Made by a program: the position numbers and the translations under genes. Positions 8,842 through 41,401 of a stretch of 64,000 nt of DNA are shown here, one piece after another. Below the pieces are notes generated by a model. That model saw nothing but the letters and a program-made list of their open reading frames with translations, was not told where the DNA came from and ran no database searches. This DNA is from a virus. Location of the stretch: positions 32,001 through 96,000 of the IMG/VR virus record IMGVR_UViG_3300023440_000002, one strand, 5' to 3'. Numbering within the stretch: position 1 is the first letter of the stretch; each line of letters begins with the position of its first letter.

Positions 8842-8868
8842 TAAAGTTATCCGCTATTCAGCCGATAA
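8842..8868 (+). promoter_or_regulatory. Sigma-28 (FliA)-type promoter
   Basis: TAAAGTTA-N11-GCCGATAA versus the established consensus TAAAGTTT-N11-GCCGATAA. Confidence 0.85.
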
Positions 8869-20671: not shown

Positions 20672-20698
20672 TTATCGGTTATGTCTGTAATAACTTTA
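20672..20698 (-). promoter_or_regulatory. Sigma-28-type promoter inside an array unit
   Basis: Reverse complement TAAAGTTA-N11-ACCGATAA. Confidence 0.75.
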
Positions 20699-35335: not shown

Positions 35336-35362
35336 TTATCGGTTGTTTAATATAAAACTTTA
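35336..35362 (-). promoter_or_regulatory. Sigma-28-type promoter
   Basis: Reverse complement TAAAGTTT-N11-ACCGATAA. Confidence 0.8.
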
Positions 35363-35801: not shown

Positions 35802-35993
35802 TTAATTTCCTTCCAGGTCTAAATCTTTAGGCGTACCAACAGGACGCTTAATAACCTTGCTTGCTAGATATTTATCTCAATCTCTTTCTTCGTCGTAGCT
35901 TTTTCTAAGTTTTTTTAGTTCATTGAGTATATCCATCATAACCCAAATTGTCCAAGATGTAACTACTACAGCTAAAAATATATTCATTATCAT
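35802..35993 (-). pseudogene. Paralog of 34608..34796 interrupted by an in-frame TGA
   Basis: NELKKLRKSYDEERD*DKYLASKVIKRPVGTP versus DELRKLRKSYDEERNRNWDRYLGSKVVKRPVGIP; TGA at 35877-35879. Confidence 0.6.
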
Positions 35994-36009
35994 CACACAT
36001 CCTTTGGTT

Positions 36010-36063
36010 AAGTCTCATCAGTTACGTCATCAACGTAAGACCACCCGAAGGTGGTTTCGACTT
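36010..36063 (-). ncRNA. Type II hammerhead ribozyme
   Basis: Minus strand reads AAGUC-GAAA-CCACC-UUCG-GGUGG-UC-UUACGU-UGAUG-ACGUAA-CUGAUGA-GACUU. The full catalytic core and three perfectly paired stems are present. Confidence 0.9.
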
Positions 36064-36065
36064 GG

Positions 36066-38060
36066 TTAATCGTCATCACTCGCAAGAGGTGATGGGCAGG
36101 TTACAGTTGGGATACTAAGAATTCTGGTTCGTGTAGACCAGTGATAGTGACCACCACCACCATGATAATATTTATATCGCTCTGATATAGCCACTGTGGA
36201 TACAGTCACGCTACACACTAAGTCAGGGTTTGATTCTAGAGCCGCGATAGCATCCGAGTTAGCCTGAATCAATGCGGTTAGTGTTTCGATGCTACCACCA
36301 GCACCAGAGATACTCTCAATGTCCGCCTGAACTTGAGTGTCATCATAAACAGTATCTGAATCATTTGCATCGGCGTAATCGTTAGCTGCTTGTTCAGCGT
36401 CATCAATTGCTTGAAGTAATGATGTATTTTGAGCATCTAGATCAGTTTGCAAATCATCAATCCTATTTGATAATGCTAAGTCAGCTCCATCAATATAACC
36501 CTTAGCTAGCAACAACACTTGATAAGCTACGTCATTTTGATAAGAGTTCTCAGAGTCAATATACAACTCTAATGTGCTAACCGCAGATGCTAATGCTTGA
36601 TCTTGTCTTCCATTTTCAGAGTCAACATAAGATCTCAACAACTGATCAGCTAATTCGCTAGCTGCCTGATTAGTATCAACATCTAATTGCAGTCTATCAA
36701 TCATCGCTACCAAGCTTGACCTTAATGCGCCGTCTTGTCTGTCTGCATAAGCCTTAGCAGATTGTTCAGATCTAGAGATTCTGTGTTCTAAAGAGTGAAC
36801 TGCCGAATTTAGCCGTCTAGACATTCTTGAATCTAATCGCCTGATCTTGTATCGCAATCTTCTCTTTACTCGTCGAATTTTAGATCGCAACTCACTTTCA
36901 AGGATGTCATCTTGATTGTCAGCGTACAATTTAGCAGCTTGTTCAGCTTGTCCAATTTCAACCCTCAGTTGAGCAAGTTCAGTTGCTAGTACTGTATCTT
37001 GATCTGTATTTGCTTGATTTAGGATACCTACAGCTTCCTGCAAAGCAGCTTCAGCGAGACTTACTGATTCAGCATCTCCTTCAGAAATTGCTGTGTTCAG
37101 GTTAGATATTGCAGTTGCTAGTACTGTATCTTGATCTGTATTTGCTTGATTTAGATCTTCGAGCATTGCAGCTATCGCGACTTCAATTTCACCTTTGGCT
37201 GTATTTAGTGCGTCCATTAGCTCCATATCAGCCTCTTCCATGTCGGATCGTAAAGAGTCCATATCGCTATCGACATCCCGAAACTCACCATCCACCAATA
37301 TAGCTCTTAATTCTGCTTCCAGTTCTAACTGGCTAATCAAAACAGTATGCGCTGATGATTGAGCCTCTTCAGCACTTAGACGCGACTCACTATTAGCCAT
37401 CCGCTCATCAGCAAGCTTCTCAGCTGCTAATCTATCCAAACGCTCTTGTTCGGCCTGATTTTGCAGTCGCTTAAGCTCCTCTCGCTCTTCTCGGTTAGGA
37501 TCTCTCATTTGATCAAGTCGATCGGTGGTATAGCCTTTGGTTATCTCACCTTTGCGCCGAACCTTACCTTCGTAGTCATCGAATTGCTTGCTGAAAGCAT
37601 CTCCGGTGATATTACGATCTCCAGTATAGCCGGCAGCTTTATTTTTGCTAGCTGAAACTTTGTCTTTGTTGTTCATATAACCAGAGTCAACTTTATCCCG
37701 ACTATTAACGTAACCTTTGTCGGTATCGCTAACTGTGTCGTTTTCAAAGTTTTGAAGGTCTTCGCCAGTCATATTCCGATCATTCATATAACCAGAAGCT
37801 TTCTTATCTGTGGCAACAACCTTCTCTTTCTGGTCAACATAACCTTTGTCGGTGTCACTCGCCACCTTGTTTTGGAAGTTTTGAAGATCTTCACCGGTCA
37901 TGTTGCGCTTAGTGAAGTAATCCTTAGCTCCTTCAGTACCAAACTCAAAAGTCGGAGCATTTAGTGAAACATCACTAACACCATTCATGCCATCAAGCTT
38001 CATCTCTTGAGTACCACACCCAAGGAATAACAATGCTAGCGTTAACAATAAATACTTCAT
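36066..38060 (-). CDS. Predicted lipoprotein with long coiled coil and internal repeats
   Basis: Start MKYLLLTLALLFLGC (lipobox) at 38060 with SD AGGAG. Repeats RNMTGEDLQNF..SDTDKGYV and LNQANTDQDTVLAT. Confidence 0.7.
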   Translation of the reverse strand: MKYLLLTLALLFLGCGTQEMKLDGMNGVSDVSLNAPTFEFGTEGAKDYFTKRNMTGEDLQNFQNKVASDTDKGYVDQKEKVVATDKKASGYMNDRNMTGEDLQNFENDTVSDTDKGYVNSRDKVDSGYMNNKDKVSASKNKAAGYTGDRNITGDAFSKQFDDYEGKVRRKGEITKGYTTDRLDQMRDPNREEREELKRLQNQAEQERLDRLAAEKLADERMANSESRLSAEEAQSSAHTVLISQLELEAELRAILVDGEFRDVDSDMDSLRSDMEEADMELMDALNTAKGEIEVAIAAMLEDLNQANTDQDTVLATAISNLNTAISEGDAESVSLAEAALQEAVGILNQANTDQDTVLATELAQLRVEIGQAEQAAKLYADNQDDILESELRSKIRRVKRRLRYKIRRLDSRMSRRLNSAVHSLEHRISRSEQSAKAYADRQDGALRSSLVAMIDRLQLDVDTNQAASELADQLLRSYVDSENGRQDQALASAVSTLELYIDSENSYQNDVAYQVLLLAKGYIDGADLALSNRIDDLQTDLDAQNTSLLQAIDDAEQAANDYADANDSDTVYDDTQVQADIESISGAGGSIETLTALIQANSDAIAALESNPDLVCSVTVSTVAISERYKYYHGGGGHYHWSTRTRILSIPTVTCPSPLASDDD

Positions 38061-38074
38061 TTTCTCTCCTAAAA

Positions 38075-38173
38075 AATTAAAAATAGGCGTGATTGCCAAG
38101 ATTAGTACTATTATCGGTTTATTTTCAAATAACTTTAGCGGTTTCTTATTATTTCTTCTACACCCTCAAAAGA
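38075..38173. repeat. 99-bp exact direct repeat, copy 1 (copy 2 at 39508-39606); contains a sigma-28-type promoter
   Basis: Identical sequence by eye; promoter TAAAGTTA-N11-ACCGATAA on - at 38111-38137 and 39544-39570. Confidence 0.9.
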
Positions 38174-38674
38174 TACGGAACAGCAGTGAGATGTTTCGCA
38201 CTTAGGGCATGCATTCTCAATAGATATGTATTCCCCACTTACTGAATCTTCTATTGTTCCGTCTATCAGTTCGGAATAGTCGAAAGTGGATTTACAATCA
38301 AAACACTTAACTTTTTTGGGTAGATATTCATACAGCCATTTCGGTTCCGGGGCCATAGACGTAAATACCTCATGAGGAGTATTTACTTCATAATCCCGCA
38401 AATTATATGCTTCCAACCCCTTCAGTTCAGTTTCAGTTAGCGGCCTACTTAAAACAACAACACATGTTTTATTTTTTGACCAGGTTTTTTGATAATCCAC
38501 TTTCCAGCACATTATGGCACCTATGGAGCCTAAACCTAAAGGTAAGGCCTCTTCAGGGTTACAGTCTAAAGTTAATGTTACCGTAGTTCTACCGCTAGGA
38601 ACCAAATATTGCGTTTCTCCTGCATCAGGATTCTTCTTTATGGAAGACTTCCTGATTTTTACTAAATACATCAT
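38135..38674 (-). CDS. Hypothetical protein with C-terminal zinc ribbon
   Basis: CFDC ... CPKC. Confidence 0.6.
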   Translation of the reverse strand: MMYLVKIRKSSIKKNPDAGETQYLVPSGRTTVTLTLDCNPEEALPLGLGSIGAIMCWKVDYQKTWSKNKTCVVVLSRPLTETELKGLEAYNLRDYEVNTPHEVFTSMAPEPKWLYEYLPKKVKCFDCKSTFDYSELIDGTIEDSVSGEYISIENACPKCETSHCCSVSFEGVEEIIRNR

Positions 38675-39492
38675 TGATTCATGACACTACGAACAAACTT
38701 AAAGATTTGCCCAGAAGCCCCTTTCGTAATTGCTTTGATTTCATCTTTGCTGCCTTTAATTTCGCCCTCATCGACAAGGTCTTTAGTGTATTGCTTAACA
38801 ATTAAACCTAAAGATTTAGGGAAGTTGCGGGTAAGAGCTTCATCTTTCGAAACCACCTTTTCTAATCTGATCGGCTGGCAAAGGTGAGAGTAATCAACCA
38901 CAACTCGAGATGTTTTAGTTTTTTTGTTTTTATCTCCACCAGTCCATTTGGTGCTTTCAGGTTCGAACACTTTTTTGTATCTTTGTCCGCCAATCATAAC
39001 CACAACACCTTCGACCCGCATAAAACCTTCAGCTCCTTCAACTTTAGATCCGCTAGTTTTAAGGGTTTCAGCTACTGTATTAATCATTGAACTAGATATG
39101 TCGTTTCCGTCGTAAAGTACCGGCACTGTACCTATGCGTTCTGGTAAAGACCTTTCGTATCTCCACCAGTCAAACAACAAAAACCTTCTCTCTTTTAGAC
39201 CTTCGCCAGAATTCACCCCTAAGCCACACCATTCACCGTCATGGCGACCTAAGCCTAACTTTTCGACAATCTCATCCTTGTTGCTGTAACAAAAAGAGGC
39301 GAACCCATAATTGTCGTTTTCTGGTGTTATGAATCTATTTCTAGAACCGCAAAGTAGGCCCTTAGATCCGTCTTCATTTTCGAATACTAGAATATGAGCA
39401 TTAGTTCCATGGATCTTCTGAGTTATAGTCATCCGAAGATCTCTGAGTTGTTTTATTTTCTTGAAAGACTTGAATTCTAAAGACATAAACAC
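38671..39492 (-). CDS. RNA ligase, Rnl2-like nucleotidyltransferase
   Basis: Motif I 'TQKIHGTN', 'GEWCG', 'FLLFD', motif IV 'EGVVV', motif V 'KK'. Confidence 0.8.
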   Translation of the reverse strand: MFMSLEFKSFKKIKQLRDLRMTITQKIHGTNAHILVFENEDGSKGLLCGSRNRFITPENDNYGFASFCYSNKDEIVEKLGLGRHDGEWCGLGVNSGEGLKERRFLLFDWWRYERSLPERIGTVPVLYDGNDISSSMINTVAETLKTSGSKVEGAEGFMRVEGVVVMIGGQRYKKVFEPESTKWTGGDKNKKTKTSRVVVDYSHLCQPIRLEKVVSKDEALTRNFPKSLGLIVKQYTKDLVDEGEIKGSKDEIKAITKGASGQIFKFVRSVMNQ

Positions 39493-39978
39493 CCCCTTAA
39501 GGACAATAATTAAAAATAGGCGTGATTGCCAAGATTAGTACTATTATCGGTTTATTTTCAAATAACTTTAGCGGTTTCTTATTATTTCTTCTACACCCTC
39601 AAAAGAAATAAATACCTCCTTAAGGATAATAATTAAAAAAATCGAAAACCATGCCAGTTATGTCGAACTGAACATCTAAAGCGTGGAATAAAATACAACC
39701 GATAAAACAAACAGTCAAGTGAATAACCGCCCCTCCTATAAATTCAGCCATCACGATACCTTCTTTCTTGTTAGGTGGTAAAGATTACAGTTAGGGCAAA
39801 GGTAAGGTTCTTGGTCGCTTTTATATAAATAAAAAGCCAAAACCGCTGCATCCTCTGCCTCTTCTTTTGTTGCTAGAGTTTTCTTGTTCCAGCACATTTT
39901 ACTTCTTGCTTTGAACTTATTTGATTTCTTCCTAAAACCAGACACTTTAACCTCCTAGCTGTCCTTATAATGTTAAGT

Positions 39979-40719
39979 TTAGTACACTGAGGGTGTTTTA
40001 TTTATGTAGTTTACGCTAAAAATATCCATAGATGGCCATAAAATACCCGAAAGCTTCCTTCCATGGCTAGTATCTACACAAACTGCAAACTTTTCTTTGT
40101 TTTTGGTGAAAAAACGCACGTTTTTCATTGCATTATGGCCATGAAATTGCATATTCACCCCCTTTATTGGAGTAGGTGCCCCTCTATTCCAACAAAGACT
40201 GTAATCCTCCATGGTGTTTACTTTTTTTAGTTTTTCAAATCCATAAACAGGATTGATAGGTGCATGGGTAATGATGATTTTACCGAAATTGTCTTCATGT
40301 TCAATAAACAGCGGAAGCCGATTAAGGAACTTAATGTGTTTTTTTGGGATTAAATCTACCCCACCATAAGAGTCTACAGTGCTAAACCCCCCATTGCCTT
40401 TCCATACACCCCAGTTGTATTTTTCGTTGTATTTCGGTAAGAAGCCCTCATTATGACCATTAACGAAATCTCGCATTAAGTCTTCGTGGTTTCCTAAAAT
40501 AGCTTTTGCGTCTTTTTCAGCAGAAAAGAATTCTAAAACCTTGTTAGATTCGCTACCCCTGTCAACCATATCCCCTACAGATACGACAGTAAAATCCCCA
40601 CAAGCTTTTCTTGCCATATCCATAAGCATCTCTAGTTCGGTAAACCGACCAGCAATATCACCTATTATTAGTATGTTATCTTTCACTTTCACCTTCCTTG
40701 TAGATAGTCGCCGCGCCAT
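39979..40719 (-). CDS. Ser/Thr protein phosphatase-like metallophosphoesterase
   Basis: GDIAG, GDMVDRG, GNHE, HA, HGHN and VDT motifs. Confidence 0.85.
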   Translation of the reverse strand: MARRLSTRKVKVKDNILIIGDIAGRFTELEMLMDMARKACGDFTVVSVGDMVDRGSESNKVLEFFSAEKDAKAILGNHEDLMRDFVNGHNEGFLPKYNEKYNWGVWKGNGGFSTVDSYGGVDLIPKKHIKFLNRLPLFIEHEDNFGKIIITHAPINPVYGFEKLKKVNTMEDYSLCWNRGAPTPIKGVNMQFHGHNAMKNVRFFTKNKEKFAVCVDTSHGRKLSGILWPSMDIFSVNYINKTPSVY

Positions 40720-41401
40720 CTATGGTTTCATGTGGCACAGTAGAACCTCTACTATACCTATCGGTTTTTTTGTTAGAAACTTTAATGTTATTTTCTTTTA
40801 TTGCTGAATTGTACCCTGCATAAAAACCCTGAGTGTAAGCTGTTTCGATATCTTCAAAACCTACATTCGCGATAACTCGCTTCCAGGCATCACACGATTT
40901 GATCCATAACCACATCTTAAATTTATTTTTTGACACCCTTTTCTCCTAACCTTTTATCTAGCTCTATAGCCAAATACGTACCCACAAAAGCCCCGGCAAT
41001 TGCCGCAGGTGCTTGTTCTGGATTACTAACAAAACCAGTAATAATAAAAACATTTGCCGCCATTATTAACATGGCATAGGCACTAGAAGCGAAAGATTTA
41101 CCTTCAGCTGCCGCCCTTGTATAAAAAGCAAAGAAAAAATCCAACAAAACTACCGCAAAAAAAGCAATTAAATGTTCCATCATGCGGCAATATCCCCCTC
41201 GTCTTTATTTTTTATGGTTGAAGCAACCCACAACTTCCAAAAAAAGAAATAATAATATTTAAAGTAAACAGAGTCGATAATCTCGACATAATTAGACATA
41301 TCCAATATAACCCCATCACCAACCTTAGGCGAAGAACCCCAAATCGGTGTTTTTATGATAGAGATGCCGGGTATGGTAGCTTCTGCTTTCCAAATATTCA
41401 T
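40676..41401 (-). other. Three small hypothetical genes (40676-40936, 40923-41183 membrane protein, 41180-41401)
   Basis: Overlapping stop/start codons; the middle ORF has three hydrophobic segments. Confidence 0.55.

Follow-up and report, generated by a model that had tools for sequence, protein, structure and literature searches.

The window analysed here, a 64-kb stretch of DNA from a microbial-mat metagenome, comprises bases 32001–96000 of a 108,381-base IMG/VR virus record. Between two of its genes, both on the minus strand, lies a complete type II hammerhead ribozyme of 54 nt (36063..36010, minus strand), recognized by reading of the sequence, by its fold, and by matches to two covariance models, R1 (described below) and RF02276. 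The gene upstream (36066..38060, minus strand) encodes a lipoprotein-like, coiled-coil-rich protein of 664–677 aa. Its mechanical start is a TTG at 38099; the likely start is the ATG at 38060, which follows AGGAG and gives the protein a lipobox, LFLGC. The protein carries NMTGEDLQNF...SDTDKGYV repeats in tandem; its middle is long and coiled-coil-like, and its tail is rich in Gly and His. It matches no Pfam or PHROG family, and a peptide-pattern search found no relatives of it among IMG/VR viral contigs. The gene downstream is a 38-aa hydrophobic, membrane-like ORF (35877..35993, minus strand), for which the ATG at 35993 is inferred from the Shine-Dalgarno spacing. Further downstream come a 22-aa hydrophobic ORF, an L5 gp82-like protein (PF25735), a 58-aa membrane ORF and an ASCH protein. 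On the same strand, upstream of the lipoprotein gene, are genes for an RNA ligase (38671–39492; PF09414/phrog_548) and for a NinI-like, calcineurin-like metallophosphoesterase (39979–40719), both assigned by family match.

A recurrent motif resembles a sigma-28 promoter. The motif, TAAA-N14-17-CCGATA, occurs 17 times in the window against 0.78 expected, and none of 100 shuffled sequences reached 17. In its fuller, FliA-like form, TAAAG(T/A)T...CCGATA(A), each copy stands just upstream of one or more co-oriented genes. The putative promoters of interest here are all on the minus strand: one (38112..38137; TAAAGTT-N-CCGATAA) precedes the lipoprotein gene, one (39545..39570) the ligase gene and one (40759..40784) the phosphoesterase gene, and the next copy downstream of the ribozyme lies at 35337..35362. 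Other copies in the window include those at 8842–8867 (plus strand) and 20673–20698 (minus strand). Between 38112 and 35362 there is no copy, and the frequency of terminator-like sites does not exceed that in shuffled sequences; the genes from the lipoprotein through the gp82-like protein therefore probably form one transcription unit, of which the ribozyme is probably the sole internal punctuation.

Architecture of the ribozyme

Read 5′ to 3′ in the RNA, the element opens after a 2-nt spacer, CC, that separates the TAA of the lipoprotein gene (36068–36066) from the first strand of stem II. This strand, AAGUC (36059..36063; C36059 is position 11.1), is the 3′-side strand by hammerhead convention, and pairs with GACUU at the far end of the element. 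It is followed by the core residues G12 A13 A14 (36056..36058), which are invariant in alignment A1 (see below), and by the stem III hairpin (36040..36055), which consists of the A15.1–U16.1 pair and CCACC/GGUGG, capped by a UUCG tetraloop. C17 is at 36039, and the hammerhead consensus (PMC3088659) places the predicted scissile bond between it and 36038. The stem I hairpin comes next (36022..36038), 17 nt in all: six base pairs, UUACGU/ACGUAA, and a 5-nt loop, UGAUG, whose 5′ U is U36032. The second half of the core, CUGAUGA (C3 U4 G5 A6 U7 G8 A9; 36015..36021), leads into the 5′-side strand of stem II, GACUU (36010..36014; G36014 is position 10.1), and beyond this lie AACC and AAAGGA (36005–36000). 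Stems I and III are thus closed by loops, and because stem II is the open one the element is of type II.

Perreault et al. (PMC3088659) accepted hammerheads on the basis of the core C3 U4 G5 A6 N7 G8 A9, G12 A13 A14 A15 U16 H17, of pairing at 10.1–11.1, 1.1–2.1 and 15.1–16.1, and of short stems free of mispairs. The element has all of these. None of the 13 consensus core positions is missing; the core-adjacent pairs G36014–C36059 (10.1–11.1), U36038–A36022 (1.1–2.1) and A36055–U36040 (15.1–16.1) are in place; and stems II, III and I, of five, six and six pairs, contain 17 Watson–Crick pairs and no mismatches. The earlier note on this DNA had described the same stems, core and type II topology on the minus strand, 2 nt past the lipoprotein stop and ahead of AAAGGA, and this description is borne out base by base and by the coordinates of the flanking signals. 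Its predicted cleavage site, 36039/36038, likewise coincides with the consensus position of C17, on sequence grounds.

A strain from a second sample carries an identical element, with three substitutions within the gp82-like gene. Another contig, of 1646 nt and with a depth of approximately 20 versus 48, comes from what is likely the source sample and shares positions 36044–36077 with one mismatch. These 34 nt span the last lipoprotein codons, the first strand of stem II, GAA and half of stem III, and upstream of them the contig diverges; it could represent a second strain or phage in which the same ribozyme stands behind a different gene. Elsewhere, blastn of the locus against the phage collection gave no match, and an exact 31-mer of the locus was absent from metagenome contigs. 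In viral contigs, an exact 23-mer of stem III matched only unrelated, pseudoknot-type hammerheads, and 80 loci encoding homologs of the gp82-like protein (at most 52% identical) contained no type II hammerhead.

A compact subclass of type II hammerheads

The element resembles the type II hammerheads described previously (RF02276; PMC3088659) in its circular permutation, catalytic core and GUC cleavage triplet, and, like those of PMC3088659, it sits between phage genes, where the same transcript-cutting role has been proposed. It differs from the RF02276 consensus in the periphery. In the consensus, stem II is 2–3 bp long, loop I has approximately 10 nt, and loop I forms a pseudoknot with the 3′ tail; in the element, stem II has 5 bp and loop I 5 nt, and there is no complementary tail. 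A pseudoknot of at least four pairs, between loop I and bases 3′ of stem II, occurs in the majority of type II hammerheads (PMC3088659). We looked for one here, and rejected it: loop UGAUG and the tail AACCAAAGGAUG can form at most three pairs (UUG/CAA).

These differences affect how the element appears to Rfam. The earlier note had named a search with Rfam hammerhead models as a check, and this would have been misleading. With a 68-nt slice (36003–36070), RF02276 (Hammerhead_II) aligns over its full length (model positions 1–66) with 24.6 bits and an E-value of 0.0013, below its gathering cut-off of 37 bits. Larger scans were blank: no hammerhead appeared in the 64-kb window at gathering thresholds, nor in 301 nt at E ≤ 10, and RF02276 had no match in the whole record. 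We attribute the blanks to speed filters together with the sub-threshold score, rather than to absence of the element; Infernal's filters hide short, sub-threshold ribozymes when the slice scanned is larger. The score itself is low because the element lacks the 2-bp stem II, the approximately 10-nt loop I, and the pseudoknot tail of the Rfam consensus.

A search pattern made from the core and inner stem II of the element matched at least 120 viral contigs, against the approximately seven that we estimate would match by chance. Among the matches listed, a descriptor identified 184 type II hammerheads, and these fall into two groups. One is Rfam-like: its stem II has 3 bp and its loop I approximately 10 nt. 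The other, which we term ‘compact’, has a stem II of 4–5 bp, mostly GGUC/GACC or AGUC/GACU, a stem I hairpin of exactly 17 nt, and no pseudoknot. At least 54 distinct compact members have a 6-bp stem I with a U-N-A-N-G loop. The element's own loop, UGAUG, conforms to this formula, and its loop-closing pair, U–A where the class usually has G–C, is changed on both sides.

Alignment A1 comprises 54 compact members from other viral contigs, with the present element left out, so that covariance model R1, built from A1, is independent of it. Of the cells in A1, 99.5% are paired, and 11 of the 15 base pairs vary in both partners; covariation scores 0.748, versus 0.157 for shuffles and no more than 0.116 for slid partners. 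The compact class is a real structured RNA. R1 matches the element without gaps over model positions 1–52, with 61.7 bits and an E-value of 6.8e-17, although 21 of the 52 positions match by construction, the seed pattern having come from the element's own core and inner stem II; the next-best site in the window scores 12.3 bits. Three class features that lie outside the search pattern—the 17-nt stem I hairpin, the U-N-A-N-G loop, and an A at position –1, just 5′ of stem II—are all present in the element. A second, independent set was drawn from species-representative genomes, and comprises 98 loci with 84 distinct elements, in which the U of loop I was fixed by the pattern. The compact form of the type II hammerhead is widespread: viral contigs yielded at least 54 members, and species-representative genomes 84.

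Rfam overlooks other compact members, too. At the gathering cut-off it recovered none of them in 10 loci, whereas pseudoknot-type members were recovered in three control loci; and three compact members of a single locus, L117, score 26.8–27.9 bits with RF02276. Because these members and the 10 loci also fall short of the cut-off, the compact subclass as a whole is sub-threshold in Rfam. Ribozymes in phage genomes are consequently under-counted by standard annotation, the compact form scoring below the cut-off and being filtered out.

Members of the class also share a position with respect to genes. Among the 54, the gap between the preceding stop codon and the ribozyme has a median of 3 nt and is 20 nt or less in 40, and the ribozyme is followed, at a median distance of 19 nt, by a start codon preceded by a Shine-Dalgarno sequence. 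The gaps of the present element, 2 nt after the TAA and 13–16 nt before the start codon, are typical of this layout. Flanks of class members are commonly A/C-rich (64% A+C) and AACCAA-like on either side. This accounts for a direct repeat, TTAACCAA (36069–36062 and 36011–36004), that might be taken for a target-site duplication left by insertion of the element. We rejected that interpretation given these flanks; a search for an empty site with which to test for insertion found none.

Several arrangements within the class deserve mention in passing. In L117 (2150–5077), nine compact type II hammerheads are packed into 3 kb, each in an intergenic gap of its own and with GGAGAAC and a start codon following it within 0–10 nt. 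A tail, AUCAG, that is complementary to CUGAU of the ribozyme's own core occurs directly 3′ of some members (in L094, L142 (two copies), L150, L183 and L117:4745–4801), and is offset by one base in another (L176:2788–2843); the present element lacks it. And many metagenome-assembled genomes of gut Gastranaerophilales/Melainabacteria carry two compact hammerheads approximately 300 nt apart, in what is apparently one conserved locus (e.g. L221, L222, L224, L227, L228, L235 and L237, among others).

The probable loop I contact and competing explanations

In natural hammerheads, a contact between a 5′ U of loop 1 and a 3′ A of loop 2 forms above a purine:A opposition (PMC2632901). It occurs in the loop–loop hammerheads of viroids and satellite RNAs such as CChMVd and sTRSV, in which the U at the 5′ side of loop 1 pairs with the A at the 3′ side of loop 2 (PMC2632901, PMC2553840). 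The compact class seems to share this contact, along with the 4-bp stem II and the purine:A opposition, at positions that are conserved and covary. Of the 48 viral members among the matches listed, 45 have A at –1 of a 4-bp stem II and three have U; the former 45 begin loop I with U and the latter three with A, such that all 48 combinations are complementary (z approximately 6). In the genomic set, –1 is A in all 84 members, and stem II has 4 bp in 82 of them. The base at +1, which would oppose the A, is a purine in 42 of the 48 viral members and in 78 of the 84 genomic ones (A in 72, G in six). The covariation of U and A in the class thus seems, by analogy, to reflect the viroid-type loop contact, with one difference of note. 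The CChMVd and sTRSV hammerheads are of type III and have a closed loop 2; in the compact class, loop 2 is open, and ordinary mRNA bases, beside the stop codon and ahead of the Shine-Dalgarno sequence, serve as its two ends. That a conserved, covarying U:A contact should form while loop 2 is ‘open’ is a simple hypothesis for tests by mutation.

The element carries the two contact bases, U36032 in loop I and A36063 at –1. Its +1 base is U36010, which replaces the purine of the CChMVd and sTRSV opposition and, instead of opposing A36063, pairs with it to form the fifth pair of stem II. The element thus lacks the R:A opposition, in the sense of an unpaired purine 3′ of a 4-bp stem II. Stems of this length are rare, occurring in five of the 48 viral members and in one of the 84 genomic ones. 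In another type II hammerhead, one extra pair in stem II made activity substantially lower (PMC3088659), and the fifth pair could lower the activity of the present element for this reason.

Carried further, this argument leads to the most serious of the competing explanations, namely that the element is a hammerhead by descent which is now slow or crippled—the A36063–U36010 pair locking up the contact adenine—and which would cleave only weakly at cellular Mg2+ and serve mainly as two stable intergenic hairpins. The unusual U at +1, the rarity of the 5-bp stem II, and the loss of activity when stem II was lengthened in the tested type II hammerhead (PMC3088659) all speak for this. Against it, a Watson–Crick A–U pair leaves the Hoogsteen face of the adenine free, so that the contact may survive. 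Six other members of the class share the A–U extension, moreover, and three of these belong to the nine-ribozyme array of L117. The core and stems are intact in a genome that has no other copy, which argues for selection, and the element is unchanged in the strain from the second sample. On balance we consider it unlikely that the element is impaired in this way.

The minimum-energy structure of the isolated 54 nt is the hammerhead shape, at –16.1 kcal/mol. When 76 nt of context are included, the hammerhead fold is surpassed by approximately 1.4 kcal/mol by a rival at –17.5 kcal/mol, in which CCUU of stem III is paired to AAGG of the Shine-Dalgarno sequence. Such rival folds are common for hammerheads, since nearest-neighbour energies do not model the core.

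A second explanation concerns not whether the element cuts but what the cutting is for. The earlier note had raised, as a speculation, a connection with the nearby RNA ligase and phosphoesterase. On the fullest form of this view, the ribozyme and the two enzymes would cooperate, the RNA ends being healed and resealed so as to splice, circularize or repair phage RNA. The two proteins do resemble an RNA healing-and-sealing pair. Their genes are on the same strand as the ribozyme, 2.6–4.7 kb upstream, and the phosphoesterase has a further match, to the middle of a 737-aa ‘RNA ligase’ PHROG, which recalls healing-and-sealing repair enzymes. The wider evidence runs the other way. The record contains a single hammerhead in 108 kb, and none of type I or type III, which leaves no segment to be excised for circularization; no polynucleotide kinase is recognizable nearby; each of the two genes has a promoter-like motif of its own; and tblastn of 130 hammerhead loci (1.2 Mb, each of at most 15 kb) found no homolog of either protein. 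Hammerhead cleavage leaves 2′,3′-cyclic phosphate and 5′-OH ends, and ligases of the PF09414 type require a 5′-phosphate and a 3′-OH, not raw hammerhead ends. Phage ligase and phosphatase sets serve to repair tRNAs cut by host nucleases, as in T4, and tRNA repair is the ordinary explanation of this pair as well. A link between the enzymes and the ribozyme is thus unsupported, and we consider it very improbable.

There remains the matter of chance. A loose descriptor (core, GAA, A/U, H, and stems of at least three pairs) finds a single site, the present one, on both strands of the whole 108,381-base record, and loose matches arise at 0.2 per genome in 40 Markov-shuffled genomes. When stems II, III and I are required to have at least four, five and five pairs, respectively, the 40 shuffled genomes contain no match at all. 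Descriptors of type I and type III hammerheads have no match in the whole record, nor in 10 shuffles. That the element might be a fortuitous look-alike, or mere intergenic hairpin or terminator, as the silence of the Rfam gathering scan and the few U residues after the UUCG hairpin could be taken to suggest, is of negligible likelihood in view of the shuffled genomes, the R1 score, the 13 core positions and 17 Watson–Crick pairs in register, and the fact that no terminator-like site is called at the element. As far as computation allows, a chance origin is ruled out.

A probable processing site in a phage transcript

We are confident, although short of certain, that the element is a functional compact type II hammerhead in a leftward transcript, and that it cuts between the lipoprotein gene and the small genes that follow. 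The sequence, the fold, the class membership and the gene layout are matters of observation, and from these we infer cleavage, co-transcription and the consequences for expression. Most likely, to judge from the sequence, a single phage transcript is cut in two. The suggestion in the earlier note that the ribozyme processes a polycistronic mRNA is the usual interpretation of phage and prophage hammerheads (PMC3088659), and is in keeping with the co-directional genes and with the interval, 38112–35362, that is free of the promoter-like motif.

The course of events might be as follows. The leftward transcript probably begins at the putative sigma-28-like promoter at 38137–38112. Behind the advancing RNA polymerase, stem III would form first, then stem I, and then stem II, and U36032 of loop I would dock on A36063 beside stem II. 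Self-cleavage after C36039 would occur during transcription or soon after it. The 5′ product would be a lipoprotein mRNA of approximately 2 kb, with the GC-rich UUCG hairpin of stem III and a 2′,3′-cyclic phosphate at its 3′ end. The 3′ product would start with a 5′-OH and the stem I hairpin, would have its Shine-Dalgarno sequence 4–9 nt past the ribozyme, and would encode the small membrane-protein gene, followed by the L5 gp82-like gene. Because only the 5-bp stem II joins them, the two products should part, after which each half would be stable, and be translated, independently of the other.

Such a role has precedents. Hammerheads of phages and prophages were proposed in 2011 to cut long transcripts into gene-length mRNAs (PMC3088659), and type II hammerheads beside phage-like genes in Desulfovibrio vulgaris cleave in vivo (PMC8782182). 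The latter, and the prophage clusters, also lie between co-directional phage genes (PMC3088659; PMC8782182). Unlike the clusters, the present element occurs as a single copy, in DNA of a microbial-mat virus.

A parallel of another kind comes from synthetic biology. In insulators of the RiboJ type, a hammerhead is placed just upstream of the ribosome-binding site, where it creates a defined 5′ end that is independent of the sequence upstream; these were engineered from a type III hammerhead of a satellite RNA. Unlike these, the present element is natural, and is predicted to shape the 3′ end of the upstream mRNA as well.

The class layout also raises a further, and doubtful, idea. In members of the class, the stop codon is followed after 0–5 nt by the adenine that docks and by the 5′ strand of stem II, both of which would fall inside the footprint of a terminating ribosome. 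Given spacing as tight as this (class median 3 nt; here 2 nt), cleavage could depend on translation of the upstream gene: folding would be blocked while a ribosome occupied the stop codon, and cutting would be confined to transcripts free of ribosomes. If this were true, the ribozyme would sense translation and switch the mRNA between polycistronic and monocistronic forms, instead of cutting constitutively. We give this idea a low probability.

Intergenic phage hammerheads are already well known, and this one is an ordinary, genuine instance of them; it leaves knowledge of the hammerhead mechanism unchanged. Of use beyond this instance is the definition of a compact subclass that is invisible to Rfam, together with its covarying U:A contact. 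For the phage, the element is likely an RNA processing site that separates, inside one transcription unit, a large lipoprotein gene from the small membrane-protein genes behind it.
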